A DNA stretch of 64,000 nt. It comes from an uncultured Candidatus Saccharibacteria bacterium. GTDB taxonomy: Bacteria; Patescibacteriota; Minisyncoccia; UBA6257; 2-01-FULL-56-20. The first letter of the stretch is position 1. Each line of letters starts with the position of its first letter. The notes beneath the pieces are model-generated. The model was not told the DNA's origin and ran no database searches. It saw only the letters and a list, made by a program, of their open reading frames with translations. The DNA lies in the NCBI GenBank assembly GCA_964387675.1, contig CAYLWL010000001.1, forward strand, positions 1,099 to 65,098. The letters run 5' to 3'. Shown here piece by piece: positions 9,024 through 51,382 of this stretch. The position numbers and the translations under genes were made by a program.

Positions 9024-9118
9024 CCACTCAAAATAACAGGAAAAAAATCATTTGACAATTCACCGATTATCCGCTACAATCTAGCCAGCTGAATTCACTA
9101 CAATACTGGAGAATTTCG

Positions 9119-13373: not shown

Positions 13374-13461
13374 CATAAGAAGACTATAGGGCAAACCCTG
13401 TGCTTAGTCAATAAAGTATAAGAGTTTAATTCGAATCGAAAAGAATTTATTTAAACCTCGG

Positions 13462-14403
13462 TCAGCCGAATAGTTTCTTTTTCAACTTATGCGTATTTCC
13501 GTGGCCAAGGAGTCCACGATATGAGGCGGAGGTTTCGTCAGACAGATTTTCACCCAATCGTCTGGCCATCCGCCGCCTTGTCGCGGCCCTCAAAGTCCGG
13601 TGATACGGAAAGTGAACCCAACCGAGGAAGTCGACGCCGGAGGCGAACGTTTTGATAGAAACTTTGTCAGGATGAAGTGATATGTGTAGCCGCGTCTCGA
13701 GAAAACCTGAAGTTTTCGGAATAATGCTTTCCAAGTATCGCTTATCCTCGTGTACAATCACAAAATCGTCGGCATAGCGAACGCAATGGCGAATCTTCAG
13801 CTTCCGCTTCAAGAACTGGTCGAACTCGTTCATGTAAATATTCACGAGGAGCTGGCTCGTGAGGTTGCCAAGCGGCAGGCCGACGCCCGGCTTGTCCTTT
13901 GTATGGAAGCTGTCAATGGTTTCGGCCAAGAGCCATAAAATATCGTTATCTTCGATGTACCGCTTCAAAATGTCTTTTAATGTTCCATGATCGATGCTCG
14001 CGAAAAATTTCCTGATGTCGCATTTAAGGATCCATGCCGTCCGCGCGTGATTGCGCGAGACGACCCTCGTATATTTCTTGAAACGATCCATCGCGCGGTA
14101 CGTGCCTTTGTCGTAGCGACAGGAATACGAATCGAAGATGAATTTCTTATCGAAATAGGGATACAAAATCCGGTAAATCGCGTGGTGCAGCAAGCGGTCG
14201 CGTACTTCGGCCTTGTGGATTTCACGCGGCTTCGGGTCGTTGATTTTGAATGGCCGGTACGGACCGTGCCGGTATGTTTTGTCCGATAATTCCCGGTGAA
14301 GCGCGAGGATATTGCCCGTAAGATTCAAAGAAAACAATGCAACATCTTTGCGTTTTCGCTTGCCGCGTAAAAATTCGCGCCACGCGGAAAGCAGATTTTC
14401 CAC
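13462..14403 (-). CDS. Diversity-generating retroelement (DGR) reverse transcriptase
   Basis: 313 aa. RT motifs 1-7, including YADDFVIV. Carries the DGR-specific motif GLPLGNLTSQLLVNIY where other RTs have QGxxxSP. The N-terminus LSAWREFLRGKRKRKDVALF is typical of Brt-like RTs. Confidence 0.85.
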   Translation of the reverse strand: MENLLSAWREFLRGKRKRKDVALFSLNLTGNILALHRELSDKTYRHGPYRPFKINDPKPREIHKAEVRDRLLHHAIYRILYPYFDKKFIFDSYSCRYDKGTYRAMDRFKKYTRVVSRNHARTAWILKCDIRKFFASIDHGTLKDILKRYIEDNDILWLLAETIDSFHTKDKPGVGLPLGNLTSQLLVNIYMNEFDQFLKRKLKIRHCVRYADDFVIVHEDKRYLESIIPKTSGFLETRLHISLHPDKVSIKTFASGVDFLGWVHFPYHRTLRAATRRRMARRLGENLSDETSASYRGLLGHGNTHKLKKKLFG

Positions 14404-14445
14404 GGAAATGATATCATGGAAATCATGACGCGGCCAGGCGATTCG

Positions 14446-14471
14446 TCTCTCTCTCTCTCTCTCTCTCTCTC
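14446..14471. repeat. (TC)13 dinucleotide microsatellite
   Basis: tctctctctctctctctctctctctc lies in the divergent intergenic region between the RT and the avd-like gene. Confidence 0.9.
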
Positions 14472-14510
14472 GATAAGGCCTCGATTCTCGCGAGAATCAA
14501 AGAGGGGTAT

Positions 14511-14834
14511 TTGTTTTGGATGAATCTTGTGCCGCATATTGCTAAGGGTACCCGATATACGCTCGGTGCGCGAATTGAAAATAAGTTTCTTGATCTTTTG
14601 GAACTGTCCTACGCCGCGTACTTCACGGAAAAAGAAAAGAAAGTGGAGAAAATTACGGAATGCGTCTTCATAACAGACATACTCAAGTTTTTGGTCTCCG
14701 TTGCGTGGGAAGGCGAGGTTATCTCCGACCACCAATGCGAAGGCATCGCGGTAAAACTGGAGGAGATCGGCAAAATGCTCGGCGGCTGGAAAAAGAGTTT
14801 GGGCAATCCCGAAAAGAAAAACCGCGCTCTCTGA
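14511..14834 (+). CDS. Avd-like four-helix-bundle accessory protein, on the opposite strand to the RT and target
   Basis: 107 aa, helical. The C-terminus LEEIGKMLGGWKKSL resembles the Avd C-terminus AEVGRILGSWIARV. It is adjacent to the TR. Confidence 0.5.
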   Translation: MFWMNLVPHIAKGTRYTLGARIENKFLDLLELSYAAYFTEKEKKVEKITECVFITDILKFLVSVAWEGEVISDHQCEGIAVKLEEIGKMLGGWKKSLGNPEKKNRAL

Positions 14835-14855
14835 ACGCGGAAAGAACGAACTTTC

Positions 14856-14982
14856 GGAGGCGGAAGACAAACTCATTGTCGGGATTCCACGTATTGCCCG
14901 GATTCGTCCAATTGTCGTTCAGCCACAGACCGTCTTCGTTTCGTTCCAAGTTGAAGACGTTCGGGTTGCCGTCACGATCGGT
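14856..14982 (-). repeat. DGR template repeat (TR)
   Basis: 127 bp that aligns with 15333-15459. About 18 mismatches, every one at a plus-strand T in TR, which is a sense-strand A. Encodes the Asn-rich sequence GLWLNDNWTNPGNTWNPDNEFVFRLRK. Confidence 0.85.
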
Positions 14983-15307
14983 TCTGTGCGCCGCGCCATC
15001 CGCGCCACTGCCCGTCTAAATAAAGAGACTGGGCTGTATTTTATATGGGAGCATGACTCCACCAGCGCAGCGCACCAAGTTGTTTCTTTTTTGTTGACAA
15101 CTATGCGAATCCTCTCCGTCAAGCCGTAACCGGACGGACTCTCAATATGCATATGCCGGAAGGGTCTCGAAAAACCGCCTGGCCCGAGCGAGGTCGAAGG
15201 CTAGCCGTCCGATATAACCCATCTGATTTAATAATAGCAAAAAATTACGGCGGGATACAAAAAGAATCAAAGGGTTAAAGCGCCAAAGTTTCAGAAACGC
15301 AAAGATT

Positions 15308-17212
15308 CTAAGTTTTCAAGTTTTTCAACTTGCGGAGGCGGAAGACAAACTCATCGTCGGGATCCCACGTATCGCCCGGACCCGTCCAAAGGCCGTACAG
15401 CCACAGACCGCCTCCGTACCGAGCCAAGTAGAAGACGTCCGGGTTGCCGTCACGATCGGCTATTTGTTTCATGCCAATGCGGAACCATTTATTTAGGGGT
15501 TGGTTTGCATATTTGAGCCGATAATGCGGTCCGGTTTCGGCTGGACAGAGTTCCAATCCCAATTCTTCGATGCGTTTGTAAACTTCGTCTGTTGTCGGGT
15601 ATTTGTCTTTGGGAAAACCGAGGTCGCCAACTTTGAGGCGGATGAGAATTTCTTCCTCTGATTTTTTGAGGACGGTGAAATCCTTGCTTTTCAACATATC
15701 CATCGCATAGTCCGAGATGTTGATCTTTTTCTCGCGCATTTCATTAATGAGCGTTTTGGCATCTTTACCGCCGATTTCCAGTTGTTCTTTGCGAATTCTG
15801 CCTTCGGGGAAGGAAGTGTAGACGTGTTCGATGCCATATCTCTGGACTTTGTCGAAGATGCCGGGGACGAGGGAGCCGACATAGGCCTTTGTGTCTTCTT
15901 TGATTTCGGATATGTCTCGTGCGATTTGATCTTTTTCGCACTCAAACACTACTGCCATGTCTTCTTCGGGATTTCTTTGAGAGCGGAGCTCCCTGACGCG
16001 GGGATCATTCGTTCCATAACCAAAGCTTTCTATGGGTGCGTTGATTTCGTAAAGAAAAATAAGGTCGTCTTTCGAGAGCGTTGCGCCTGTTCCTGTCTTT
16101 TTCTTGATCGCGGTTAATGTTTCCATATCGCTGGCCTTCTTTTCGTATTTCTGGCCGTCGGGATGAGCCGCAAGTTTTTCCTTGATTACGTTGTTGATAC
16201 GGGGATCGATGTGCTCGTCTTCGGCCACACCACGGACTTCGGAGATGATTCCACCTGCGCTTACGATCACCGCGCGCGGCACGGTTGGTTTGCCTTCTTT
16301 GTCAAGCGAGTAAAAAATTTCAAGATCGTTTCCTTGAAGATATCTTCGTGCCATAGACTCGCCTCGCAAGCACCAGCCAGTGCCATAAGGAGCGATCGAT
16401 TCTACAAGACGCATTGGGTCGGATCCTTGGGGATATGCTATCCACGTTCCCTCGGTAACCTTGAGTAGTTCTTCGGGTATGGGCTTGAACTCTTCGACGG
16501 CCAAGGCGTAGAGCTTGGCAAAGTTCTTTTGTTTGAGGAGTTGAAGAAAGCTTTGCTTGGTTGCTTCTTCTATGTCGTAGCCGAATTTGACGGGTTCGCC
16601 CCTCTCTTGCCGCTCAAACGATTCAAGCACGATGGCCAGGGCCTCGCGATTGAGGTCGGGAAAGGGAGCAATGGCCCCGCCGGTTCTCTCAGAAAAAGCT
16701 TTCTTTTTCTTGTCGTATCTACCCATACGCAAGATGCTGCGGAAAGCGAAGTATTTGAGATAGTCAGGATATTTGGCGTCATCTGACGCTAGATAATCGA
16801 CCCATTCGTCAAGAGAGTTCTTTTGGTCGGTAGTAATTGTTTCCGCGAGTTCTTTCCGTATATCGCCCGGTATTTCATCAAGGGGGCGGCCTTCTTCTTC
16901 GTGCCTCTTTTTTACGGATTCGAAGTAAGCTTCGGGAATGTCCTCTGGTTTGATGACGAACTGGTCATAGAGGGAGCGCTTCAGCGTCTCGAGATTTCTC
17001 TCTCCTCTTTCGAAACCTTCGTGACCCGCCAGTCGTGCTGGATGAATTACTGATTTTAGTCGGTCGAGATAATTTTGTATGCGGGCGTCTGCTCCTTCTA
17101 CTGTATCGAGCGTGAGCTTTTTCCCTGTCCGTTTTTCGGTACGCTTTGCAGCCCGTTCTACTTCGTGGCTTTTATGCAAGCCATATTTTTCTCTTAAGAA
17201 GCTCTTTTCCAT
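15308..17212 (-). CDS. DGR variable (target) protein with the VR at its C-terminus
   Basis: 634 aa. C-terminus ...RYGGGLWLYGLWTGPGDTWDPDDEFVFRLRKLKNLKT corresponds to the TR-encoded sequence. The N-terminal roughly 560 aa is uncharacterised. Confidence 0.8.
   Translation of the reverse strand: MEKSFLREKYGLHKSHEVERAAKRTEKRTGKKLTLDTVEGADARIQNYLDRLKSVIHPARLAGHEGFERGERNLETLKRSLYDQFVIKPEDIPEAYFESVKKRHEEEGRPLDEIPGDIRKELAETITTDQKNSLDEWVDYLASDDAKYPDYLKYFAFRSILRMGRYDKKKKAFSERTGGAIAPFPDLNREALAIVLESFERQERGEPVKFGYDIEEATKQSFLQLLKQKNFAKLYALAVEEFKPIPEELLKVTEGTWIAYPQGSDPMRLVESIAPYGTGWCLRGESMARRYLQGNDLEIFYSLDKEGKPTVPRAVIVSAGGIISEVRGVAEDEHIDPRINNVIKEKLAAHPDGQKYEKKASDMETLTAIKKKTGTGATLSKDDLIFLYEINAPIESFGYGTNDPRVRELRSQRNPEEDMAVVFECEKDQIARDISEIKEDTKAYVGSLVPGIFDKVQRYGIEHVYTSFPEGRIRKEQLEIGGKDAKTLINEMREKKINISDYAMDMLKSKDFTVLKKSEEEILIRLKVGDLGFPKDKYPTTDEVYKRIEELGLELCPAETGPHYRLKYANQPLNKWFRIGMKQIADRDGNPDVFYLARYGGGLWLYGLWTGPGDTWDPDDEFVFRLRKLKNLKT
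15333..15459 (-). repeat. DGR variable repeat (VR) with the IMH-like GC-rich 3' end
   Basis: It differs from the TR only where TR has A: TR Asn, Glu and Asp codons become Tyr, Leu, Gly, Asp and Ala. The shared 3' end GTCTTCCGCCTCC is identical to TR. Confidence 0.85.
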
Positions 17213-17255
17213 GAGAGTATTATGCCGCGGAAATTGATGGAAATCAATACAAGAA

Positions 17256-17849
17256 TCAAAACAGCGTCGCCATACTGCTTGCGAAACTTACCCTCATGAC
17301 TTCGCCGGTCATCTTGTTCGGAACCAAGAGCGACCTGTCTTTCTGGTAAAGATCATAGAGTTCTTTCGTTAGTTTCACGTCGTTCAAGCAATAGGATTTC
17401 AATTCTTCGATTTTTCCGTCCTTCCACAGACCGATCGCCTCCGAGCCGTGGCGATCTTTTTTCACGCCCAAGTTCGCCTCGGAAAGCTTGCTCAAGCTTA
17501 TCCTCTGCCCCACCATCCGCTCGATCTCTTCCGAAAGGTCCACGCGTTCTTTTCCCCAAATTCTTGGAGCGGAGGGTCCGAGTCGCTGAAAATGGAGGTT
17601 CAAAACCGGAACGTCGTAGCGGTTGATGCTGAATCCAACAATCCTGTCGCAACTATGAAAAATATCTGTCAGCTTTTCCAGTTCGTTTTCGGCAAAGCAG
17701 GAATATGTATCCTGCGCGTAGGAATAAACCCCGACAGCGGAAATTTTGAGCGCATCAAAATTATCCCAGCCGACATCAGGATCGGTAAAAAAGTTTTGCG
17801 TTTCGATGTCGAATACGAGGGTGTCCATTGTAGTAAATGCAAAGGTCAA
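17256..17849 (-). CDS. DEDDy-type 3'-5' exonuclease domain protein
   Basis: Exo I motif VFDIETQNF. Exo III motif YCLNDVKLTKELYD. Confidence 0.55.
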   Translation of the reverse strand: MTFAFTTMDTLVFDIETQNFFTDPDVGWDNFDALKISAVGVYSYAQDTYSCFAENELEKLTDIFHSCDRIVGFSINRYDVPVLNLHFQRLGPSAPRIWGKERVDLSEEIERMVGQRISLSKLSEANLGVKKDRHGSEAIGLWKDGKIEELKSYCLNDVKLTKELYDLYQKDRSLLVPNKMTGEVMRVSFASSMATLF

Positions 17850-17884
17850 ATATCAAAAATCAAAATGTAATTCAAAATGAAAAA

Positions 17885-18256
17885 TTACCTTTTGCCCTTA
17901 AGAGTTAGTACGCTGGATCCGATTATCTTGGAAATTTCTTCAGCTTCCCGGTAAAGGGGTGCTGCCGCAGAACCGATCTCCGGCTTACTTTCTTGCACGA
18001 CAGTCAACCAATACTTAGTTTCGTTTGCAGATTTCAGCGCTATCTCAAAAAATTTGATGTAATCTCTTCTTGAGCTTGAAGATTTAGCTTCGGTAACGTT
18101 CGCGCCGACAGAACTAGCACTCCTGATTAATTGGTCGCTAAGCGACCACAAACTTCTATGCACGCCCAACTTTTCGCAAAAAGATATAATATCTACCGAA
18201 AACCGAATTAATCTCTTAGTAAAATCCTCTTTAAATTTTGCTTTTTCATTTTGCAT
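17885..18256 (-). CDS. Four-helix-bundle protein (23S-rRNA-IVS / Avd family)
   Basis: SDQLIRSASSVGANVTEAKSSSSRRDYIKFFEIALKSANETKYWL matches the family consensus (SQ..R...SI..NIAEG ... F..iA.gS..E). Confidence 0.7.
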   Translation of the reverse strand: MQNEKAKFKEDFTKRLIRFSVDIISFCEKLGVHRSLWSLSDQLIRSASSVGANVTEAKSSSSRRDYIKFFEIALKSANETKYWLTVVQESKPEIGSAAAPLYREAEEISKIIGSSVLTLKGKR

Positions 18257-20897: not shown

Positions 20898-22994
20898 ATG
20901 GCGACCAAAGGAAAAAGTGGAGGTGACGAAAGATCGTCGAATCCAAAAATACAAAAAGAACATCGGCTCCACCCCGACGCCGAAAAAAGCATCTGGGCAA
21001 TCGCGCTTTTCGTTCTCGCCGTCATTCTCACGCTCGCTTTTTGGGGAAAAGCGGGACTGGTCGGAGCATACTCGTACGAACTGCTCTCCGCGCTTTTGGG
21101 GTGGGGATATTTGATCTTGCCGGCCGCGTTTTTGCTCACCTCCATCATATTCTTAACCTCCGAACGGCAGCATATCGTCGGCCTCACGCTCTCCGGCGCG
21201 GGACTTTTGATCGTATCCGTCTTGGGGCTTATAGAAATAACCTCTCCGGCGCACGGCGGCTGGCTGGGACTGGCGTTGGGATCGCTGCAATATCTCTTCG
21301 GACAAGCGGCTGCGGTCATCGTAAACGGGGGTCTCGTGGCGATATCCGTTATTGTCATTTTGAACGTTCCCTTGCGGATCACATGGCCTGAAAAAAATAA
21401 ACCATCCCGGCTCGAAGTATCCGTAGCGAAGGCCGCAACCTCCGAGCGCGAAGAAGAGGGCGAAGACGAAACAGGCGGCGACGAAGAGGAAAAACAATCC
21501 GAGGACGAACTAGAAATAAAAGAGGGCGCGTCGGCCATCCCGCCAAAAACGAAAAAATCAGCCGCAAAAACATTGCCCAATTATGTGGCGCCTCCGCTTG
21601 CGCTCCTCAAGTCCGCGAGCGATAAGCCGACGACCGGAGACCTTTTGGCGAATGCCAATATCATCAAACGAACGCTCGACAGCTTCGGCATACCCGTCGA
21701 AATGGGCGAGATCAACGTGGGGCCGGCCGTTACGAGGTACACTCTGAAGCCCGCCGAAGGGGTCAAACTTTCGAGAATCACGGCCTTGAATCAAGACCTG
21801 GCTTTGGCGCTTGCGGCGCATCCCATAAGAATCGAGGCGCCGATTCCCGGCAAGTCCCTCGTCGGCATCGAAGTTCCAAACAAAACGGCGGCCCTGGTGC
21901 GGCTCGGATCTCTGATGGGCTATCCTGAATTTCAAAAGTCCGGCCCCTTGGGCTTTGTGCTGGGGCGGGACGTTTCCGGCGAACCGGTTTTTGCCGACGT
22001 CGAAAAAATGCCGCACCTCCTCGTCGCCGGAGCAACGGGGAGCGGCAAGTCCATTTTGATACACTCGCTTATTATTTCTCTGCTCTATAAAAACTCGCCG
22101 GAGACGTTGAAGCTGATTCTCGTCGATCCGAAAAGAGTCGAACTCTCCCTATATGAAGGGCTCCCGCATCTCGTGAGCCCCGTCATCATCGAGAGCAAAA
22201 AGGCGGTTGGGGTTTTTCGGTGGGCGATCGCCGAGATGGAGCGAAGATATGACGTCTTGCTCCAAGCCGGCAGCCGCGACGTCAAAAGCTACAACGCGAG
22301 CGCCGGGAAAAACAATCCCCTGCCGTATCTTTTAATCGTTATCGACGAATTGGCCGATTTGATGACTTCCTATGGCCGGGAGGTGGAGGGATCGATTGTG
22401 CGGCTCGCGCAGATGGCGAGGGCAACCGGGCTCCACCTCGTGCTCTCCACTCAACGGCCGTCGGTCGAGGTGATCACCGGGCTCATCAAAGCGAATATCA
22501 CGAGCCGAGTCGCGCTTCAGGTCGCAAGCCAAATCGATTCGAGAACCATCATCGACACTTCGGGAGCCGAAAAGTTGCTCGGCCACGGCGACCTCTTGTA
22601 TATCGCATCCGATCTCTCGAAGCCGAAAAGAATCCAAAGCTCCTATCTCACCGAAGAAGAAATGAAGAAGGTCACCGAATTCATAAGAGACAACAACGGG
22701 ACTCCGGAAGAGTCGGAAGGGGTGAGTTTTGAAGAAACTCCGGGCGCTTCGCCGGTTAATTTCGACGAGTATCTGGAAGACGAAGAAGACGAGCTGTACG
22801 ACGAGGCCGTGCAAATCGTTTCTCAAGCGCAAAAAGCTTCGGCTTCGCTCTTGCAAAGGCGACTGAAGGTGGGGTATGCTCGAGCGGCGCGGCTCTTGGA
22901 CCTTATGGAGGCGAAAAATGTCATCGGTCCGGGAGACGGCGCGAAGCCGAGAGAAGTGTTTATGGACCGGATACCACCCGGGGATATGGTATAA
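20898..22994 (+). CDS. ftsK: DNA translocase FtsK/SpoIIIE
   Basis: N-terminal transmembrane helices. Walker A GATGSGKS. C-terminal gamma domain (LLQRRLKVGYARAARLLDLME). Confidence 0.85.
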   Translation: MATKGKSGGDERSSNPKIQKEHRLHPDAEKSIWAIALFVLAVILTLAFWGKAGLVGAYSYELLSALLGWGYLILPAAFLLTSIIFLTSERQHIVGLTLSGAGLLIVSVLGLIEITSPAHGGWLGLALGSLQYLFGQAAAVIVNGGLVAISVIVILNVPLRITWPEKNKPSRLEVSVAKAATSEREEEGEDETGGDEEEKQSEDELEIKEGASAIPPKTKKSAAKTLPNYVAPPLALLKSASDKPTTGDLLANANIIKRTLDSFGIPVEMGEINVGPAVTRYTLKPAEGVKLSRITALNQDLALALAAHPIRIEAPIPGKSLVGIEVPNKTAALVRLGSLMGYPEFQKSGPLGFVLGRDVSGEPVFADVEKMPHLLVAGATGSGKSILIHSLIISLLYKNSPETLKLILVDPKRVELSLYEGLPHLVSPVIIESKKAVGVFRWAIAEMERRYDVLLQAGSRDVKSYNASAGKNNPLPYLLIVIDELADLMTSYGREVEGSIVRLAQMARATGLHLVLSTQRPSVEVITGLIKANITSRVALQVASQIDSRTIIDTSGAEKLLGHGDLLYIASDLSKPKRIQSSYLTEEEMKKVTEFIRDNNGTPEESEGVSFEETPGASPVNFDEYLEDEEDELYDEAVQIVSQAQKASASLLQRRLKVGYARAARLLDLMEAKNVIGPGDGAKPREVFMDRIPPGDMV

Positions 22995-23050
22995 AATCCT
23001 AAGCACTCAATCCTAAACAAATTCCAAGATTGTGGCTTGTTTAGAATATG

Positions 23051-23179
23051 GATCCCTCACCTTTCGAGGATTAATATCTTCTGGGCGAGGCCTTCAACAA
23101 AACAATGATATTCCGCAATAAAAAGTCGTGGAAATTAGATCAACGAGGTTGCCGCCGCGCAATCCTCGAAAGGTGAGAG
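23051..23179. repeat. MITE-like repeat family L2, copy B, abutting the rodZ-like start codon
   Basis: Terminal inverted repeats gatccctcacctttcgaggatt ... aatcctcgaaaggtgagag, followed immediately by ATG 23180. Confidence 0.8.
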
Positions 23180-23830
23180 ATGGACGATCAAAACTTTTTT
23201 TCTTTTCTCAATGGTCGCATCAAGGATAAGGGGCTCAACCTCAAAAAGATTTCCGAGCTCTCGGGGATCTCTTTGAAACACCTGGAGGCACTCGGCCGAG
23301 AAGATTTTTCGGCGATGCCGCCGGCGCCGTATTTTCGGGGATATCTCATAAAACTCGGGGAAATATTGGATTTCGATCCCGATCCGTGGTGGTCAAAAAT
23401 AAAAAGCGCCGGCGCCGTGAGAAATTCGGGGGAGGAAGACGCTCCTCCCCGGAATCGGTTCATCAAGCCCCAGTTCCTGAAATTCATCTGGGCCGCGATC
23501 GTCGGGCTTGTTGTTTTGCTGTACATCTCGCTCCAATCTTCAAGAATCCTTGGCAAGCCAAACATTCAAGTGGTGTATCCCGAGACAAATCCGGCCGTTG
23601 CGGCGAGCAACACCATAACGCTCAAGGGGAGCGTTTCCAACTGGAACGAACTCACGCTGAACGGCGAGCCGATATCGGTTAGTCGCGACGGGGAGTGGGA
23701 AAAAATCGTGCTTCTGGAGCCGGGCCTCAACTCCCTCGAACTAAAAGCTAAAAAGTTCCTGGGGGGCGAGATCAAGGTGATAGAGCAGATCATATACCAA
23801 CCCACCAGTACTATTGGGGCTTCTTCATAA
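23180..23830 (+). CDS. RodZ-like helix-turn-helix membrane protein
   Basis: N-terminal HTH (LKKISELSGISLKHLEALGRED), a single transmembrane helix, and a C-terminal beta domain. Confidence 0.5.
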   Translation: MDDQNFFSFLNGRIKDKGLNLKKISELSGISLKHLEALGREDFSAMPPAPYFRGYLIKLGEILDFDPDPWWSKIKSAGAVRNSGEEDAPPRNRFIKPQFLKFIWAAIVGLVVLLYISLQSSRILGKPNIQVVYPETNPAVAASNTITLKGSVSNWNELTLNGEPISVSRDGEWEKIVLLEPGLNSLELKAKKFLGGEIKVIEQIIYQPTSTIGASS

Positions 23831-23842
23831 CCACTGTTTATG

Positions 23843-23998
23843 ATTGCGCCCCGCGCAGTCCTTTCGGAAACAGCCTCGATTTGCTCCAGCGGCAAATCGG
23901 ACTTCGCTCTCGGCGAAAAACCGAGCACATAACGCCTATGTGCTCGGACCAATCTTTTTCGCCTCCGAGATATTCCTCAAGAACAGCGCGAGGCTCAC
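23843..23998. repeat. Structured repeat R1, copy 1 (inverted relative to 29557-29712)
   Basis: Its reverse complement aligns with 29557-29712 (for example ctcggtttttcgccgagagcga.gcccgatttgccgctggagcaaatcgagg). It contains an 11-bp hairpin ccgagcacata-acgcc-tatgtgctcgg. Confidence 0.75.
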
Positions 23999-24051
23999 CC
24001 TACCATCACGACTCCCGGAGCATTGCCTTCATGTGCCGATAAATCACGTAC

Positions 24052-24198
24052 CATAAGTCCTTACGCGCGGCTCTTCGGCCGAGCTGGCAGGGTGCCGAGC
24101 ACATAATGCGTTATGTGCTCGGCGAGCGAGGACGAAGCGCCAGCGAGAAGTCGCGCTGGGACTTCGAGCGGTAGCGGAAGGGCTTGTGGTACGAGATC
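24052..24198. repeat. Structured repeat R2, copy 1, directly upstream of recA
   Basis: It aligns with 27953-28096 (gcgcggctcttcg...gccagcga.aa.tc.cgctggg.a.tt.gagcggtagc.gaagg.cttgt). Includes a 12-bp hairpin ccgagcacataa-tgcg-ttatgtgctcgg. Confidence 0.75.
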
Positions 24199-24236
24199 TC
24201 TTGACTCTCTTTCGGAATGTCATAAAATTAACTACA

Positions 24237-25262
24237 ATGACTCCGCAACCAAAAAAGCCCAGGGACGAAAACAGCAAAGAACTCGACAATCTTCTCTCTG
24301 CGCTTCAAGGAAAGTTCGGCGAGGGCGCGATCATGAAGCTCGGAGAAGCAAGAAAGGTTGACGTCGCCGTGGTTCCCACCGGTTCTTTCTCGCTCGATCT
24401 CGCGCTCGGCGTCGGCGGCCTGCCGCGCGGAAGAATCGTGGAAATTTTCGGCCCGGAAGGGAGCGGGAAGAGCACTCTCGCGCTGAACGTCGTGGCCCAG
24501 GCGCAGAAGCAGGGCGGCAAAGCCGCGTATATCGACGCCGAACACGCGATGGATCCCGAATACGCCGCGCGCCTCGGCGTGAATATCCACGAACTTTTGA
24601 TTTCCCAGCCGTCAAGCGGCGAGGAGGGTCTTAATATTTTGGACAGCTTGGTGCGTTCCGGCATGATCTCGGTTGTCGTCGTGGACTCCGTCGCGGCCTT
24701 AACTCCGCAAGCGGAGCTTGAAGGCGAAATGGGCGAACAGCACGTGGGGCGGCAGGCGCGGATGATGGGACAGGCCCTCCGCAAGCTCACCGCGATCGCC
24801 GCGAAAACGCAGACACTTATTATTTTCATAAACCAGATCAGAATGAAGATTGGCGTGATGTTCGGTTCACCCGAAACGACGCCGGGCGGCAGAGCGCTCC
24901 CGTTTGCGGCATCCGTCCGCATCGACGTGCGCCGCATCGCGCAAGTGAAGAAGGGCGAAGAAACCGTCGGCAGTCGGGTGAAGGCGAAAGTGGTGAAAAA
25001 CAAAGTCGCGCCGCCTTTCAGGCAGGCGGAGTTCGATATTATGTTCGGCCAAGGTATCTCGTATGAGGCGGACGTGCTGAACGCGGCGATCAATCGCGAT
25101 GTCGTAAAAAAATCCGGCGCGAGCTACAGTTTCGGCGGAGAAAAACTGGGGAGCGGCTTCGATAATGTCCGCGAAAAACTGAAGGGAGAGAAAAGGATTT
25201 TGAACGAGATCAAGAAAGCGGTCATTGCGGCTATCAAGGACGCGGAAACGAAGGACAAGTGA
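24237..25262 (+). CDS. recA: Recombinase RecA
   Basis: Walker [13 protein letters not shown], and loop motifs typical of RecA. Confidence 0.9.
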
Positions 25263-25451
25263 ATGCGGCGCGGACAAGAAGGCGGATTGTTGACAAATTT
25301 CCCAAAACAGAATAAGCTTATAAAGATATGAACGGCAAAAAACTTATCTCTCCGAAATATTATTTTTGGTTTATACTCAAACCTCTTTCAAGGAAGGGCT
25401 TTTTGCCGAGCGCGAACTAAGTAGCTACAGGAGGAAACTCCCATAAAGCAA

Positions 25452-25480
25452 AAACCTCTTCCCCGGAAGAGGTTTTTGCT
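25452..25480 (+). terminator. Intrinsic terminator after recA
   Basis: aaacctcttccccggaagaggttttt: a hairpin followed by a T-run. Confidence 0.6.
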
Positions 25481-25511
25481 TCTTCCGGGGCACCTTGAAA
25501 GGAGGTTGGCT

Positions 25512-26378
25512 ATGGGAAAGGACTATGACTTGCTTCTCTCGGACGACATCGCGTTAGACATTGTGGCAGAACGCAGGATTGCCGCAGAAGATGTCCAATG
25601 GAAGTTCTTGGCGAAAGCCGGAGTGGTAGGGGGAGGACTTACGAAACTCCTCCGGGAACTTGGCGCGATCGCGCCAGGAAAGTACGAACAAAAGACGATC
25701 GCTCGGCTTCTTGGGGCGGGCAAGAACATCTCGTTCCTCTCGGTCGTCTGTCCCGACTACGCGACGCGCGAAGAGAAAGGCACGATGCGCTACACGTTCG
25801 ATTCGCTCGGCGAGGGCGTCGGCGTCGTTGCCGGTCGGGCGCTTGAGGTGCACGCCCGCCTCGCGAAGTTTTTCGCGGAGCATGAGGCGTCGGCAAGGGT
25901 GAGTTTTACTCTCGCGATGGCAGATCAGGAAGCGAGCGAGGAAAACTGCGGACGGGTCGGCATTGATCGCGACGAATTCACGAGAAGACTGCGAAAAAGC
26001 CAGGAGGCGCTCGGTGATCAGGCCAAATCTCTCGGCGTCACCCTCGAAACTCCTCTCCTCTCCGAAATCGACCCTCCCCGCTGGGAAACAGCTCGACGCG
26101 AAGCGAAAGAAATGCTCGGGCGAGTGTCTCCCGGACTTCTCGAGTCCGCGCGGAGGGTCCGCCATCTTTTCTACGACCGATGGGCCGGACGGCGGCTTGA
26201 AAACAGTGAAGCGATGGCGATGCTCCTCACGCAAGTCGAAGAATACATTGCCGTCGGCAGGTACCTCGCCGAAGACGGACGGGTGATTCTGGGCCTGGAT
26301 GCGCCCGTTATGGCCCCCTTTGTGCGTCATGGTGCGAGCGGAACGCCGGTCATCTATTTCGAACGACCGGAGTACTAA
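25512..26378 (+). CDS. Hypothetical protein (higher-GC gene)
   Basis: Strong SD (aaggagg) 7 nt before ATG 25512. A 289-aa ORF with no recognised motif. Confidence 0.4.
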   Translation: MGKDYDLLLSDDIALDIVAERRIAAEDVQWKFLAKAGVVGGGLTKLLRELGAIAPGKYEQKTIARLLGAGKNISFLSVVCPDYATREEKGTMRYTFDSLGEGVGVVAGRALEVHARLAKFFAEHEASARVSFTLAMADQEASEENCGRVGIDRDEFTRRLRKSQEALGDQAKSLGVTLETPLLSEIDPPRWETARREAKEMLGRVSPGLLESARRVRHLFYDRWAGRRLENSEAMAMLLTQVEEYIAVGRYLAEDGRVILGLDAPVMAPFVRHGASGTPVIYFERPEY

Positions 26379-26383
26379 CTAAG

Positions 26384-26420
26384 CCGGTTCGCGTATGAAT
26401 TCATACGCGAACCGGCCCCA
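26384..26420. terminator. 15-bp-stem palindromic hairpin
   Basis: gccggttcgcgtatgaattcatacgcgaaccggc. Confidence 0.5.
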
Positions 26421-26432
26421 CAATTTCCAAAC

Positions 26433-26789
26433 ATGAAACAAAAATCAAAAAAGTTCGTTATTAATGGCGGCACGCGTGGCATCATATACCCCGATCACCC
26501 TCGCGGCGAACACACGATCGCAAAAATCATCATGAACGGAACATATCCGGTCGCGGGATATTCGATCAATCAAAAGTGCAGCGAAACGATACTGATGCTT
26601 TCCGGAATCTTTCGCGTCAGAACCAACAATACGATTCGCGAAATCAGACCGGGAGACATTCTCGTAATCCTGCCCAAAACAAAATATCGCGTTGAAGGCA
26701 GAGGCGAAGCGCTCGATATTATTACGCCCGCTTGGGACAAAAAACAAAACAATATCGTTCCCGACAAAAGCTTCACCATAAGGCCATGA
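26433..26789 (+). CDS. Cupin-domain protein
   Basis: 118 aa with a beta-rich cupin-like pattern. ATGA overlap with the downstream gene. Confidence 0.45.
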   Translation: MKQKSKKFVINGGTRGIIYPDHPRGEHTIAKIIMNGTYPVAGYSINQKCSETILMLSGIFRVRTNNTIREIRPGDILVILPKTKYRVEGRGEALDIITPAWDKKQNNIVPDKSFTIRP

Positions 26790-27907
26790 CCAAAACTCGA
26801 ATTATCTACGCCAACACAAAAAACTCCGATATGTTCTACGCCGTACGAACGACGATCCCGGACGCTTTTTTTCTTGTAGAACTCGGCGCGCGGAAAGTTA
26901 TATTTTTGGACAAGCGTGAAATCGGAATCTTCCAAGAACACGATACCGGTAAAAAGTTTGAAGTTATTCCCCTTGAACCGCTTGTCGAAAAAGCGCGGCA
27001 ACAAACAGGCGCAGAAGGCCTCGTCTGTCGCCTGGCTCTCGTCATCATCAACGAATTCGCGCCGAGGCGTGGCGAGGCCGAGGTGCCAGCATACTTTCCT
27101 CTCGACATGGCGGACTTTTTGCGTTCGCGGGGAATCTTCTTGAAAGTGGTACATCCGTTTTTTCCAGAAAGGGCTGTCAAGAACCACTTTGAGATACGCG
27201 CGATCGAAACATCTCTTAAAAAAACCGCGGCGGTATACCAGAGGATCGAAGAAATCCTCAAACGCTCCTCAATTGCGGGCGATCGCATTGTCTTCGAACA
27301 AGAAGCGCTCACGAGCGAGTTTTTGAAACAAGAAGTCGATCGTGTTCTGCTCGCGCAGAATATGCTGAACACCGAAGGCATCATTATCGCCTCCGGAAAA
27401 CAGGCCGCTCTGCCGCACCACCAGGGCTCGGGGCCGCTTCTGCCCAATGAACCGATTATCTGTGACATATTCCCCAAAGATACGTTGAGCGGCTACTTCG
27501 CCGACATGACGAGAACATACGTGAAAGGCGTTGCCTCCCCCGAAATGAGAAAAATCTACCGAGCGGTGCTCCGAGCGCAAGAGGCCGGAATCACCTCGGT
27601 GAAACCGGGAGTAGCGTGCGGCGATGTTCATAAAGCGTGCTGCGACTCGTTTCTCAAAAACGGCTACGATGTCGGAGAAAGGGGCTTCGTGCACAATACA
27701 GGCCACGGCCTGGGATTGGATATCCACGAGCCGCCGTATCTCTCCGGCGCAAGCGACGACATACTGAAACCCGGCAACATCATCACCGTGGAACCCGGCC
27801 TGTATTACGAAGAACGCGGCTCCGCAAGAATCGAGGATGTGCTCTTGGTCACCGAAACCGGGTCGCGCAATCTCACGGATTACCCAAGGACTCTAGAAAT
27901 TCCATAA
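26786..27907 (+). CDS. M24-family Xaa-Pro aminopeptidase
   Basis: Creatinase-like N-terminal domain plus M24 metal ligands (HNTGHGLGLDIHEPP, E..E). Confidence 0.8.
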   Translation: MTKTRIIYANTKNSDMFYAVRTTIPDAFFLVELGARKVIFLDKREIGIFQEHDTGKKFEVIPLEPLVEKARQQTGAEGLVCRLALVIINEFAPRRGEAEVPAYFPLDMADFLRSRGIFLKVVHPFFPERAVKNHFEIRAIETSLKKTAAVYQRIEEILKRSSIAGDRIVFEQEALTSEFLKQEVDRVLLAQNMLNTEGIIIASGKQAALPHHQGSGPLLPNEPIICDIFPKDTLSGYFADMTRTYVKGVASPEMRKIYRAVLRAQEAGITSVKPGVACGDVHKACCDSFLKNGYDVGERGFVHNTGHGLGLDIHEPPYLSGASDDILKPGNIITVEPGLYYEERGSARIEDVLLVTETGSRNLTDYPRTLEIP

Positions 27908-27952
27908 AAAAGAACGCCGGGGTTTTCCTTGGCGTTAAAAGTTCCCGATCAT

Positions 27953-28096
27953 GGCAGACACAAGCCCTTCGGCGCGGCTCTTCGACTGAGCGGGCATGGT
28001 TCCTGAGCCGCGTCGAAGGAGAGCGAAGGAGAAGTGCCAGCGAAAATCCTCGCTGGGGATTTGAGCGGTAGCCGAAGGACTTGTATCTGTCATCTC
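27953..28096. repeat. Structured repeat R2, copy 2
   Basis: See 24052-24198. The hairpin ccagcga-aaatcc-tcgctgg covaries with ccagcg-agaagtcg-cgctgg in copy 1. Confidence 0.7.
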
Positions 28097-28103
28097 CCGA
28101 TTC

Positions 28104-29045
28104 TCACAGCCGCGCCGCCGCCTCTTTGAGTCCCTCTTCCGACGTACTCAAAATCAGATACCCGCGGAACCATCCGTATACAAACGAAGCTCCGGAACTG
28201 AATTTCAAAACTCTCGCCGGTTGGCCGTTCACAACCGTATCTTTAAATCCACCGATTACGGAGCCGGGCGAACTCACAAAAAAGCTCTCCATCTTTTGCG
28301 GTTTTTCGAGTTGGGCCGAAACCTCATCGCGGAGGAACAGCCAATTCTCGCTCGGCTTTAGTGCCAAAACATATCCCGGCCAAAGCCCGTTTCTGTCTCG
28401 ATACACGAAAACCGTGAGATCCGAGTTGAAGCGCCGAAGGGCGAACGAGGGATCGAGCGGCGCCGCTCCGGCGGCGGAAAAAGTTTCGTTCATGGTGAGA
28501 TCGTGTCCGTCTGCGCCTTGTATGCCGACTTCGTAAAAAGCCGGTGTTTGGATTCCGTAGCCGAGATCCCTGATCTGCTGGGTGTATGTTTGGGGACTAA
28601 TCCCGCCCTGCGTATTTTTGCCGATCATAAGCGCCAAAACTTCGTCCGGAGGACTTTTGAAAGACGAATGGTGAGTAAAGCCGGCTGGCTGAACCGGCGC
28701 CTGCGGCCCGGCGGCGACGGGCGAAGGAGAAACGTTTTCCGTGGTCGTTGACGACGATTTGAGGAGTATCTGATACGAGAAGTAGACAATGCCAAGGGTC
28801 AAGAGAATCGCGAGAACGGCGACGACTATCGTCTTGGTTTTGTTGGCCGGCTTCTCTGTCGCGTCAGCTACTTGTTTCTCAAAATCGGCAAGCGACGGCC
28901 CCTTGACCGTCTGAAACTGCGGAACGGCGCCGCCGCTTTTCGCCATCGATTCGAGATCCGAGCGCAATGTTCTCACTTTCACCTCGAGCGGCGGCGGCGG
29001 AACGTTGGGTAAGGATTGATTTGGATTTTGCTCCGAATCGCTCAT
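28104..29045 (-). CDS. Hypothetical membrane-anchored secreted protein
   Basis: 313 aa. Pro-rich N-terminus, a single transmembrane helix (IVVAVLAILLTLGIVYF), and a long extracellular domain. Confidence 0.4.
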   Translation of the reverse strand: MSDSEQNPNQSLPNVPPPPLEVKVRTLRSDLESMAKSGGAVPQFQTVKGPSLADFEKQVADATEKPANKTKTIVVAVLAILLTLGIVYFSYQILLKSSSTTTENVSPSPVAAGPQAPVQPAGFTHHSSFKSPPDEVLALMIGKNTQGGISPQTYTQQIRDLGYGIQTPAFYEVGIQGADGHDLTMNETFSAAGAAPLDPSFALRRFNSDLTVFVYRDRNGLWPGYVLALKPSENWLFLRDEVSAQLEKPQKMESFFVSSPGSVIGGFKDTVVNGQPARVLKFSSGASFVYGWFRGYLILSTSEEGLKEAAARL

Positions 29046-29131
29046 GTTGTTCTTATTCTAACAATAAATTGACAAAAGTAATAAGTGGAAATAGAATATG
29101 GGCAGTATTCGGAGATGCGAGGAGGTTGAAA

Positions 29132-29302
29132 ATGCGCAGATTCCCTGTGATTCCCGTGTTGGGTGGTATTACCGGCTTTGTCATGGGGGCACTAGGATAC
29201 TCACTGTTAGTAACGATGTTTACTATATCGGGGGCCCTTTTGATTTACATCGTAATAAGCGCGGCGCTCAATGCGGCGCGGACAAGCAAGGGGAATGTTT
29301 GA
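29132..29302 (+). CDS. Small hydrophobic membrane peptide (56 aa)
   Basis: SD gaggagg precedes the ATG. MRRFPVIPVLGGITGFVMGALGYSLLV... Confidence 0.35.
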   Translation: MRRFPVIPVLGGITGFVMGALGYSLLVTMFTISGALLIYIVISAALNAARTSKGNV

Positions 29303-29430
29303 TGAAACCAACTTCTTTCCGTATTCGCTTGGCGGCCGTTGCGTTTTTCCTGGTCACGACACCGTGGTTTGCCGCTCTCTGTGGGTTTACGGCTGTCATC
29401 ATTTTTTTCCTTTCGCGCTTTTACAGGTAA
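29302..29430 (+). CDS. Small hydrophobic membrane peptide (42 aa)
   Basis: TGATG overlap with the previous peptide. MKPTSFRIRLAAVAFFLVTTPWFAALCGF... Confidence 0.3.
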   Translation: MKPTSFRIRLAAVAFFLVTTPWFAALCGFTAVIIFFLSRFYR

Positions 29431-29461
29431 ACCGCATCCCCTTCTTCGTAGAGCATAATAG

Positions 29462-29482
29462 GCCACACCTTTCGGTGTGGCT
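29462..29482 (+). terminator. Hairpin terminator
   Basis: ggccacacctttcggtgtggc followed by taaaaag. Confidence 0.4.
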
Positions 29483-29556
29483 AAAAAGTTTCCCCCACCC
29501 TCACCTATGAGGGCTTTCGATTTTAAGCAGACCCAAAAAGAAAAGTGCAACGTGAA

Positions 29557-29712
29557 GCTCCGCCGCAGTGTTCTTGAGGAACATCTCGGAGGCGAAAAAG
29601 ATCGGTCCGAGCATCGAATGCGTTCGATCTCGGTTTTTCGCCGAGAGCGAGGCCCGATTTGCCGCTGGAGCAAATCGAGGCCGTTTCCGAAAGAATACTG
29701 CGGCGGAGCGAA
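29557..29712. repeat. Structured repeat R1, copy 2
   Basis: A 13-bp closing stem gctccgccgcagt/actgcggcggagc encloses about 125 nt. An internal hairpin ccgagcatcgaa-tgcg-ttcgatctcgg covaries with copy 1. Confidence 0.75.
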
Positions 29713-29723
29713 ACCGGCGCAGT

Positions 29724-31877
29724 CTACTGCAGCTGTTTGATTGAAAGCCCGATCCTGCCTTCTTCAACGCGGACGATCTTCGCCCGCACATGATCGCCCA
29801 TTTTCAAAACTTCGTCGACGGTCTTCACGTAGCCGTTTTTCAGTTCGGAGATGTGCACCATGCCGTCCCATCCTCCGCCAAGATCAACGATCGCTCCGAA
29901 ATCCATAATCTTTATCACGTTCCCTTCGACGATCTCGCCGACTTTGAACTCTTTAGTGATTGCCGTCGCTTCGGCAACCGCCGCTTCGACGGAATCCACA
30001 TCCGTCCCGGAAATAAACACGCTTCCGTCGTCATCGATATCTATCGCGCTCAAGCCGTACTTCTTCACCAGGCCGTTGATGATTTTCCCGCCCGGACCGA
30101 TCAAGGCGCCTATCTTTTCGGTGCTGATCTTGATGATCTTGATCGCAGGAACGTATTTCGAAAGCTTTGGCTTCGGTTCCGCGATAACGGATTTGATGAA
30201 CTGCAATATCTCGAGGCGCGCTTTCTTCGCCTGCCTGAAAGCATCTTCGAGCATCTCGATACTCAAGCCGTCAACTTTAACATCCATTTGCAGGGCATTG
30301 ATCCCGTCTTCGGTGCCGGCCACCTTCAGGTCCATATCTCCGTGGTGATCTTCCGGCCCCTGGATGTCGGTGAGAACTTTGTAGTTTGGCTCTTTGCCCT
30401 TAGCTCTCTGCTCTTTGCCATCAACCATAAGTCCCATCGCGATCCCCGCGGCGGGTTTTTTGATCGGCACACCGGCGTCCATAAGAGACATGACCGTTGC
30501 GCATACCGTCGCCATCGAAGAAGAACCGTTTGAAGAAAGTATTTCTGAAACCACCCTGATCGTATACGGAAACTGTTCTTTGTCGGGAATCAAAGGCACA
30601 ATCGCTTTCCTTGCCAAGTTGCCGTGGCCGATGTCGCGCCGGCCAGGCCCCCGAAACGATCCGACTTCTCCCACCGAGTACGGCGGGAAGTTGTAGTGCA
30701 GGAGAAAACGTCTTTTTTCGGTTCTCTCCATTGTTTCTATGAGTTGTTCCGCGCCGGGAGCGTCAAGCGTCGTTATCCCTAAGGCCTGGGTGTTACCGCG
30801 GATGAACACGGCCGAGCCGTGGGTTCTCGGGAACAAGCCGATTTCTCCGTTCAGCGCGCGAAGCTGGTCCAGCTTCCTCCCGTCCGGACGCTTTTCCTTT
30901 TCCAAAACGTTTTTATGAACCAAGGTATTGATCTGCTCTTCAAACAGGGCGTCGACGGCTTTGAGATTCGGTTCCTGAAAGTGTTCCGTGATGTAGGCCA
31001 AGAGCGAATCTTTCAAGGCCCCAAGCTTCCCAAGATACTCAACTTTGTTCGGCTGGTAAATCGCTTCTTCGAGCCGGTTCTCCAAAAACTTTTCTATCGC
31101 CGCCTTGAGCGCCGGGTCGAATTCAAAAAGAGCGATTTCTGTTTTTGGTTTTCCTATTTCCCGTATGATCTTGTTCTGGAAATCGATCAGAGCGTTTATT
31201 TCTTTTTGGGCAACGCGGAAACCGGAAACGACTTCTTGCTCCGGAGCGTCATCTCCCCCCAGTTCGATCATGTTGATCGTGTCTTTCGAGCCGGCGACGA
31301 ACGCGTCGAAGACCGCCTTTGATGCCGCGACCTCCGAATTCGACGGGTTGATTTTAAGCTCATTGCCGATCTTCGCGAGGCGCACTCCGGCCACCGGCCC
31401 GCCCCACGGAACGTTCGAAATGCCCAAAGCCGTGGACGCGCCGAGAAGGCCCAAAAACTCCGGGTCGTTTTCTCCGTCAATTTCCAAGACCGTAACCACG
31501 ACTTGAATCTCCCGGCGGATTCGATTGTCGAAAAGCGGCCGGATCGCGCGATCCACCAGCCGGCCGGCAAGAACCGCCTCTTCGGACGCCCTGCCCTCTC
31601 TTCTCACAAAACGGCTGCCAAGAATCTTTCCGGCGGCGTAAAACTTCTCTTCGTAATCGACTTTCAGGGGCAAATAATCCGTGTCCGCGTCTTTGTGGGA
31701 CATAACAACCGTCGCCAACACAATGGTTTCTCCGTATTTCACGATAACCGCGGCATTGGCCTGATCCGCCAGAGACGAATGCTCTACGGTGAGTGTTTTT
31801 CCGGCAACCTCCGTGGTGAATGTTTTTCTTTGAATCGGCATGGCCCTAAGAATAGCAATGTAAGATGCAAAAATCAA
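29724..31877 (-). CDS. pnp: Polyribonucleotide nucleotidyltransferase (PNPase)
   Basis: 717 aa with two RNase PH domains, KH and S1 domains (GDHVRAKIVRVEEGRIGLSIKQ). Confidence 0.9.
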   Translation of the reverse strand: MIFASYIAILRAMPIQRKTFTTEVAGKTLTVEHSSLADQANAAVIVKYGETIVLATVVMSHKDADTDYLPLKVDYEEKFYAAGKILGSRFVRREGRASEEAVLAGRLVDRAIRPLFDNRIRREIQVVVTVLEIDGENDPEFLGLLGASTALGISNVPWGGPVAGVRLAKIGNELKINPSNSEVAASKAVFDAFVAGSKDTINMIELGGDDAPEQEVVSGFRVAQKEINALIDFQNKIIREIGKPKTEIALFEFDPALKAAIEKFLENRLEEAIYQPNKVEYLGKLGALKDSLLAYITEHFQEPNLKAVDALFEEQINTLVHKNVLEKEKRPDGRKLDQLRALNGEIGLFPRTHGSAVFIRGNTQALGITTLDAPGAEQLIETMERTEKRRFLLHYNFPPYSVGEVGSFRGPGRRDIGHGNLARKAIVPLIPDKEQFPYTIRVVSEILSSNGSSSMATVCATVMSLMDAGVPIKKPAAGIAMGLMVDGKEQRAKGKEPNYKVLTDIQGPEDHHGDMDLKVAGTEDGINALQMDVKVDGLSIEMLEDAFRQAKKARLEILQFIKSVIAEPKPKLSKYVPAIKIIKISTEKIGALIGPGGKIINGLVKKYGLSAIDIDDDGSVFISGTDVDSVEAAVAEATAITKEFKVGEIVEGNVIKIMDFGAIVDLGGGWDGMVHISELKNGYVKTVDEVLKMGDHVRAKIVRVEEGRIGLSIKQLQ

Positions 31878-51336: not shown

Positions 51337-51382
51337 TAACTAGACATTAGTAATTAGGGGCTTTCGACTCATGCCCTTTGTC

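Follow-up and report, generated by a model that had tools for sequence, protein, structure and literature searches.

Dispersed intergenic repeats with covarying, strand-specific folds in a Patescibacteria genome

Two kinds of non-coding repeat of about 150-180 nucleotides, R1 (two copies) and R2 (three copies), are dispersed singly between genes in a Patescibacteria genome, and each copy is closed by a helix of 15-21 bp that stays paired as its sequence changes. Our preferred reading, to which we give roughly even odds, is that R1 and R2, probably joined by an element at 54818-54985, constitute one lineage-specific modular intergenic family that was gained by insertion or duplication, is selected on the fold of one strand, likely as RNA, and has a cis role at transcript boundaries. 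The members follow a common plan: a long closing helix that is free in sequence surrounds a junction with a conserved core, a hairpin (P4) that can be exchanged between copies, the GAGCGARG motif and a hairpin with CGCUGG in its loop. The family is new, but its general kind, structured dispersed intergenic repeats, is known. The window, i.e. the whole stretch of DNA that was analysed, spans 64,000 nucleotides; gene calls and the third R2 copy come from contig JACQKV010000018.1 of assembly GCA_016204365.1, a MAG labelled Candidatus Liptonbacteria (Patescibacteria). The source-genome DNA examined amounts to 77 kb, in which five to six copies are known, and about 20 kb were examined from each of a few relatives.

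Blastn and self-comparison of the window were used to define the repeats. R1 (23843-23998) has an inverted match at 29557-29712 (87% over 146 nucleotides, with sub-blocks at 92-95%; E-value 4e-43), and R2 (24052-24198) has a direct match at 27953-28096 (71% over 137 nucleotides, with blocks at 79-80%; E-value 1e-12). These coordinates and orientations agree with an earlier note made from the sequence alone, and the hairpins quoted there for R1 and R2 are all present as written. A third R2 copy, R2-C (L085, 246-410), was found about 0.8 kb ahead of the window, also on the source contig. The R2-A/recA and R2-C junctions were recovered in independent Logan assemblies; the repeats are therefore not an artefact of one assembly. 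On folding, all copies were far more stable than shuffled sequences (z = -5.7, -7.6, -6.5 and -3.2).

R1-A (minus strand) and R2-A (plus strand) together occupy 23848-24193. An FtsK gene (20898-22994, plus) and a RodZ-like HTH_25 gene (23180-23830, plus) precede them, and recA (24237-25262, plus; ATG at 24237) follows. Beyond recA lie two hypothetical genes (25476-26378 and 26433-26789, plus), an M24 peptidase gene (26732-27907, plus), a 313-amino-acid ORF (28104-29045, minus) convergent with the peptidase gene, a small operon of two small hydrophobic ORFs (29133-29430, plus) and pnp (29724-31877, minus; stop at 29724). R2-B is situated between the end of the M24 peptidase gene (27907) and that of the convergent 313-amino-acid ORF (28104), and R1-B between the plus-strand two-ORF operon and convergent pnp. 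No informative match came from protein family searches with the hypothetical proteins encoded nearby. Placement with respect to flanking genes varies: two copies follow a gene in sense, on its 3' side, R2-A and the 54818-54985 element are directly 5' of a gene, and R1-A has no gene upstream of it on its own (minus) strand.

The R2 structure was derived from a gapless alignment of the three copies, anchored on the conserved core, from which a 30-nucleotide extra hairpin unique to R2-C had been removed. R2-A (24047-24193, plus; covariance-model match of 139.4 bits) consists of a closing helix P1 of 18 bp, a conserved inner helix (GCGCGG.../...GGUAGC), a CUUCG/CGAAG helix bearing the variable hairpin P4 (CCGAGCACAUAA UGCG UUAUGUGCUCGG; 24095-24122, plus), the linker GCCAGCGA, and a covarying hairpin P5 (GAAGUCGC GCU GGGACUUC; 24147-24165, plus) that presents CGCUGG. 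R2-B (27954-28090, plus; 147.6 bits) has its full closing helix at 27951-28093 and its P5 (AAAUCCUC GCU GGGGAUUU) at 28044-28062 (plus), while P5 of R2-C reads GAACUCUC-GCU-GGGAGUUC. In this structure 93.5% of cells were paired, compared with 33-45% when partners were slid by 1-3 columns. Pairs changed on both sides numbered 18, as against 6.3 +/- 2.0 in shuffles (0/500), a statistic that, like the others on covariation given here, draws on two to three copies per family from one MAG and 77 kb and so on few independent events. The P1 arms have three different sequences, every one of them paired, and 14 of the 26 pairs of the closing helix (P1 and the conserved inner pairs) have changed on both sides across copies, as have three of the eight P5 pairs among the three copies. 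RNAalifold independently recovered P1, the CUUCG/CGAAG helix and P5, and contributed one further pair, at columns 97:123, where a G-to-A change in R2-C is compensated by C-to-U. One R2 stem put forward in the earlier note as covarying, CCAGCG/CGCTGG, in fact shows no difference between the two window copies, and in R2-C it contains an A.C mismatch. Variation is confined to the 'loop' of that stem, which is the 5' arm of P5, and the two hairpins overlap and are mutually exclusive.

R1 was analysed in the same way. R1-A (23848-23994, minus) is a 147-nucleotide stem-closed element, repeated at 29560-29706 as R1-B (plus), the closing helix of which is perfect out to 29557-29709. Read on the minus strand, R1-A contains P1 (16 + 4 bp), a helix between an A-tract and a U-tract, P4 (CCGAGCACAUA GGCG UUAUGUGCUCGG; 23921-23947) followed by UUUUU (23916-23920), the segment GAGCGAAG, a hairpin with CGCUGG in its loop (CGAUUUGC-CGCUGGA-GCAAAUCG; 23877-23899, detected in a loop-motif scan) and the 3' arm of P1. 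In R1-B, the terminator-like P4 (CCGAGCAUCGAA UGCG UUCGAUCUCGG) with its UUUUU lies at 29607-29638 (plus) and the CGCUGGA-loop hairpin, detected by the loop-motif scan and by a scan for GAGCGARG-N(0-30)-CGCTGG, at 29655-29677 (plus). An alignment of the two copies in the minus sense of R1-A had 99% of cells paired and five pairs changed on both sides. When P4 was aligned on its loop, AUGCGU, three adjacent pairs proved to be exchanged (CAU/AUG versus UCG/CGA), and one copy carries one extra bulged base. The exchanged P4 pairs and the pairing of R1 uphold the claim that R1 keeps its hairpin paired through sequence change. Together with the 18 double changes in R2 they bear out the broader proposal that pairing is kept and structure selected: pairs are retained through two-sided changes beyond controls, as expected of a structured RNA, in alignments of three (R2) and two (R1) sequences.

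The two strands of the elements are not equivalent. Fold energies were -79.8 kcal/mol (minus) versus -64.5 (plus) for R1-A and -90.6 kcal/mol (plus) versus -82.5 (minus) for R1-B; for R2 the plus strand was favoured in all three copies (R2-A, -85.3 versus -70.4 on the minus strand), and across R1 and R2 copies the preference was 4-15 kcal/mol. R1 pairing was 99.0% on the putative sense strand (R1-A minus, R1-B plus) and 94.9% on the opposite one. All four one-sided changes in R1 helices give G:U pairs on the R1-A-minus/R1-B-plus strand and are unpaired on the other, and R2 cells comprise nine G:U as against two A.C. By fold energy, paired cells and G:U pairs, then, the better strand for R1 is the reverse of that on which it had been described. 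That the fold of one strand in particular is selected suggests that the elements work in single-stranded form, RNA being the most likely. Strand asymmetry alone is no proof of RNA, however, because folded single-stranded DNA also tolerates G:T.

Viewed on the putative sense strand, R1 has a GC-rich hairpin directly before a U-tract, the arrangement typical of an intrinsic terminator. On the minus strand of R1-A, a terminator scan identified a stem of 12 bp with TTTTTCGCCG directly after it, and P4 with UUUUU in R1-B has the same sequence design. R2 has no U-tract, its P4 being followed by CGAGCGAGG, and lacks that arrangement; a strong hairpin/T-run site is found downstream of R2-C.

R1 and R2 are related to each other. 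In the orientations assigned above, both present the variable hairpin P4, GAGCGARG and the CGCUGG-loop hairpin in the same order. The pattern GAGCGARG-N(0-30)-CGCTGG matches exactly the four window copies, with 0.08 matches expected by chance, and R2-C also matches; a stem-CGCUGG-stem hairpin is present in five of five copies, with covarying stems. With filters off, the R2 covariance model scored R1-B at 23.0 bits on the plus strand versus 9.9 on the minus, and R1-A at 16.7 bits on the minus strand, above the opposite strand, although generic long hairpins reach the same range (16.7-23.0 bits). Copies have also exchanged hairpin modules. R2-A and its neighbour R1-A have nearly the same P4, each read in its own sense, and P1 of R2-C and of R1-B have a 10-mer, ACTGCGGCGG, in common. 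The 168-nucleotide stem-closed element at 54818-54985 (minus), which abuts a tRNA gene and may represent a third family (R5), takes part in the exchange: its hairpin UGGUCUCCGACCGCGGUCGGAG matches P4 of R2-C at 20 of 21 nucleotides, and it has a CGCUGGA-loop hairpin in common with R1. It scored 23.8 bits with the R2 model (filters off) and probably belongs to the same family as R1 and R2. The shared module order, the swapped hairpins and the opposite senses of R1-A (minus) and R2-A (plus) also change the picture of a composite R1 + R2 repeat upstream of recA. Both parts are there, but as two related elements lying head to head rather than as one unit.

The elements were sought in relatives and in databases. 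The closest relatives are L002 (RecA, 82% identity), L090 (PNPase, 81%) and L094 (PNPase, 76%); in a recA-based genome scan L002 was the single close relative, the other matches being to distant bacteria, since RecA is overly conserved. The FtsK-RodZ-recA-pnp synteny is kept in three to four relatives, with 43-140 nucleotides between the RodZ-like gene and recA. This spacer is about 50 nucleotides long in L002, 140 in L090 and 43 in L094, and contains neither R1 nor R2. More generally, the spacers that hold R1, R2 and R3 here are short in some relatives and in others contain unrelated stem-closed elements of 100-200 nucleotides, which argues that the lineage gains and loses such elements quickly. 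The covariance-model search for further copies proposed in the earlier note, run with the R2 model against 21 sources, returned self-matches only, with none in 19 Patescibacteria loci (about 290 kb) beyond the source contig. The sole trace of the elements found in a relative, in the small genome parts searched, is a hairpin about 40 nucleotides after pnp in L090, in the orientation of R1-B: CAAUUUGC-CGCUGGA-GCAAAUUG, which differs from the R1 hairpin by a compensatory change of G:C to A:U. Rfam at the gathering threshold reported only tRNAs in the whole window, and at E <= 10 nothing credible over R1 or R2 in 23000-30500. Exact patterns of R1 and R2 had no match in viral contigs; a metagenome scan with the R1 exact pattern gave three matches, all by chance, in unrelated high-GC coding sequence; and blastn against phages and plasmids gave no match. 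Promoter scans revealed no convincing promoter-like site upstream of the copies.

The position of R1-A and R2-A directly upstream of recA invites the reading that they regulate recA specifically, as an SOS/LexA operator or as a leader of recA. We consider this very improbable, and reject the pair as a recA or SOS operator. The other copies adjoin unrelated genes (pnp, the M24 peptidase gene and a DsbA-like gene), and the elements are missing before recA in L002, L090 and L094, where the R2 model finds nothing, yet the recA promoter is kept. That promoter-like site, a near-consensus TTGACT-16-TAAAAT at 24201-24228 (plus), lies outside the element, downstream of R2-A and 8 nucleotides before the recA ATG at 24237, and the recA mRNA looks leaderless; L090, which lacks R1 and R2, has the same promoter and spacing. 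A check for LexA boxes, also proposed in the earlier note, found no E. coli, Cheo, alpha, cyanobacterial or actinobacterial box in 23800-24300, the patterns CTGT-N8-ACAG, GAAC-N4-GTTC and GTTC-N7-GTTC being absent there, although a box specific to Patescibacteria might differ. A coding origin, with the elements as decayed or very small protein genes repeated as paralogues, is barely credible. ORFs of 70 and 96 codons do cross R1, but every frame across the element is interrupted in at least one copy, with stops or frame changes brought in by the variable hairpin, and the substitutions in R1 and R2 keep base pairs, not codons, in line with the earlier judgement that these short ORFs are not genes. 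The source assembly annotation calls no gene over the elements, and a six-frame chimeric translation of both R1 copies found no relative among 5.8 billion proteins, and so no wrongly called ORF over a further copy. Small-peptide or type I toxin ORFs were likewise rejected, none being conserved between copies.

The preferred reading, a modular family selected on the fold of one strand, can be given a mechanism, which is predicted from sequence. R1-A and R2-A would have been inserted head to head between the stop codon of the RodZ-like gene and a pre-existing recA promoter. If transcribed, P4 of R1 and its U-tract, flanked by a complementary A-tract, would act as a canonical intrinsic terminator. 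The long P1 helices may form stable double-stranded RNA ends, serving as a barrier to 3' exonucleases or as RNase III substrates, and a shared factor may make contact with the CGCUGG loop and with GAGCGARG. It is on account of the central terminator of R1 and the location of R1-B between convergent units that we read the family as elements at transcript boundaries. Several points sit poorly with this reading: the copies lack a convincing upstream promoter, their placement relative to flanking genes varies, and, were termination at P4 efficient, transcription would seldom reach the 3' half of R1, a poor fit with RNA-level selection on the closing helix.

The main rival, possible but in our view doubtful, is that the elements are mobile DNA, moving in single-stranded, folded form as REP/REPIN-RAYT or IS200/IS605-like elements do, with the hairpins serving as transposase recognition sites and no RNA function. 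Selection for mobility would in that case maintain both the pairing and the strand asymmetry. Lineage-specific gain at intergenic spacers that are short in relatives, the other, unrelated stem-closed elements in equivalent spacers, and the swapping of hairpin modules between copies are all consistent with such movement. So is the absence of target-site duplications and of terminal inverted repeats conserved among copies, a trait of IS200/IS605-type and REP elements too, and contigs of independent assemblies end within the elements, as is usual at multi-copy repeats. However, none of about 35 window ORFs scanned encodes a Y1 transposase or RAYT, and the GTAG-type REP signature is absent. R1-A and R1-B, on opposite strands and 5.7 kb apart, do not fit a simple replication-strand bias, and the conserved apical loop and junction exceed what a terminal recognition hairpin needs.

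A second alternative treats the elements as paralogous genes for trans-acting small RNAs, independent units that would each bind one common target, protein or RNA, through the CGCUGG loop and GAGCGARG. Functional RNAs typically combine a conserved core with peripheral helices that covary freely, the same apical loop sits on different stems in R1, R2, L090 and the 54818-54985 element, and both the inconsistent placement relative to neighbouring genes and the hairpin/T-run site after R2-C would suit independent units. Yet every copy lacks a promoter-like site upstream, R1 carries its terminator in the middle, the model search of about 290 kb of Patescibacteria loci beyond the source contig gave no homologue, and Rfam gave no family match; we think small RNA genes unlikely. 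A bolder proposal, which we rate as quite improbable, is that R1, R2 and the 54818-54985 element belong to an unrecognised class of functional RNA in Patescibacteria, a compact multi-helix scaffold, with a closing stem free in sequence and an interchangeable hairpin cassette, that displays CGCUGG and GAGCGARG to a dedicated partner and may spread via an RNA intermediate, the window having a reverse transcriptase gene 9 kb away. This picture, if true, would explain selection on one strand despite the lack of a fixed relation to neighbouring genes.

Several known systems resemble the modular family favoured here. REP/REPIN elements of Proteobacteria often lie at the 3' ends of genes and can stabilise or terminate transcripts. 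Like R1 and R2, they are intergenic, non-coding hairpin units of about 100 nucleotides dispersed in one genome, with hairpin arms that stay complementary as copies diverge and with no target-site duplications. They differ in having a GTAG-type core and an associated RAYT, neither of which was seen in the elements or the window, and in numbering tens to hundreds of copies, compared with the five to six known so far here in 77 kb. Moreover, in REPINs the arms are the conserved unit, whereas here the interior (junction, GAGCGARG and CGCUGG loop) is conserved and the outer helix is free. Correia elements (CREE/NEMIS) of Neisseria and ERIC elements of enterobacteria are imperfect intergenic palindromes of 100-160 nucleotides, patchy among close relatives; in transcripts their long hairpins serve as terminators or as targets of RNase III and affect the stability of the mRNA. 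They have conserved terminal inverted repeats and, in the case of Correia, a TA target duplication, neither of which is found here, where a multi-branch fold with strand-specific G:U pairs takes the place of a simple palindrome. Bidirectional intrinsic terminators recall the GC-rich 11-12 bp hairpin of R1, its A-tract and U-tract, and the position of R1-B between convergent genes. In R1, by contrast, the terminator is the centre of a conserved multi-helix element of 150 nucleotides, only one of the strands has the U-tract in the right place, and R2 has the same design without a U-tract. TIGR arrays, of box C/D-like guide RNAs, consist of short tandem stem-loop units with box C/D motifs beside a Nop-domain Tas gene, and occur in CPR bacteria and phages (PMC12045711). 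Their units, too, are closed by palindromic, unit-variable stems that enclose short conserved motifs, and both are found in Patescibacteria, but the elements described here are single, dispersed units of about 150 nucleotides and not tandem.

To our knowledge, the non-coding RNAs and intergenic repeats of Patescibacteria (CPR), which have small genomes, are almost uncharted. The locus offers a testable example of a modular family, with covariation, a defined strand, conserved loop motifs and signs of recent gain and module exchange. If transcribed, the elements would be a new RNA family for Rfam and a handle on transcript termination, processing and protection in Patescibacteria; if they moved as DNA, they would be, as far as we know, the first REPIN-like elements of the phylum. 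Either way, the tempting regulatory reading in terms of recA and SOS is corrected.

A number of other identities were considered and rejected. A classical MITE does not fit, as the closing helices differ between R2 copies and the flanks lack direct repeats at the element ends. TIGR-Tas or box C/D units were dismissed in the absence of a UGAUGA box C and of any Nop-domain match in neighbouring ORFs. A dif/Xer site was rejected since the 28-nucleotide P4 of R2-A, ACATAAT...TTATGT, has a spacer of 4 rather than 6 nucleotides, and P4 of R1-B is unrelated. The elements are not a retron ncRNA: the sole reverse transcriptase gene of the window, 9 kb away, is of DGR type. Nor are they a DGR template/variable pair, as G/C and C/G exchanges are among the differences between copies of R1 and R2, and both copies lie between genes. 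A true DGR pair, showing the adenine pattern, is present elsewhere in the window.

A repeat of 156 nucleotides, R3, stands directly 5' of the start codons of two genes, the RodZ-like gene (copy at 23039-23194, plus strand) and a GHMP-kinase gene (13230-13385, minus strand), and its copies are 96% identical over 119 nucleotides. Within its long closing helix, the Shine-Dalgarno sequence AAAGGUGAG is paired with the far-off CUCACCUUU. The same design was found in L090, a relative that keeps the FtsK-RodZ-recA-pnp gene order, where the element (13983-14114 of that locus) lies 5' of a SIS-domain gene and shows a compensatory C:G to A:U change. In appearance R3 resembles a leader or a riboswitch-like element; comparison with Rfam gave no match.

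Another repeated 5' region, R4, is stem-closed, AT-rich and about 105 nucleotides long. One copy (2954-3059, plus strand) ends at the start codon of a glycosyltransferase gene and the other (63270-63374, minus strand) at that of a solute-binding-protein gene. The break of one contig from the independent Logan assemblies falls within R4.

Stem-closed elements occupy most of the longer spacers of the source genome. Large intergenic hairpin elements were located at 46689-46853, 45000-45077 and 51340-51400; the plus-strand fold is by far the more stable one for the first (-96.7 versus -78.0 kcal/mol) and for the second, a hairpin of about 30 base pairs (-56.9 versus -42.7 kcal/mol). The FtsK-RodZ spacer extends to 1.2 kb in the closest relative, L002, and contains, at 8707-9108 of that locus, a tRNA 3' fragment (GGGGTTCGACTCCCC...CCA) and a near-perfect hairpin of 198 nucleotides (-128.8 kcal/mol), which together suggest that this spacer is an insertion hot spot.

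The recA ATG lies only 7-8 nucleotides past the end of the -10 hexamer in the window (24201-24237), L002 (9890-9911) and L090 (5688-5829), and recA appears to be leaderless, or almost so, in this clade. A near-consensus promoter, TTGACA-17-TAGAAT (29069-29097), precedes a pair of small hydrophobic ORFs that overlap and have 56 and 42 codons (locus 29069-29430), the first preceded by an AGGAGG ribosome-binding site; both probably encode unannotated small membrane proteins. A tandem direct repeat of 139 nucleotides (43814-44108; units 91% identical, spacing 156) is probably a repeated protein module, lying inside an ORF (43453-44913) for which no Pfam match was found.

The window also carries a diversity-generating retroelement (13462-18256), comprising a reverse transcriptase (13462-14403, minus strand; Pfam RVT_1, E = 1.4e-19), a template repeat (~14849-14988), a variable repeat (~15327-15466) at the 3' end of an ORF (15308-17212, minus strand), and an Avd-like four-helix-bundle ORF (17885-18256, minus strand; PF05635). 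Within the aligned core, every mismatch between template and variable repeats coincides with an adenine of the template: 11 are A>G, 6 are A>T and 3 are A>C.
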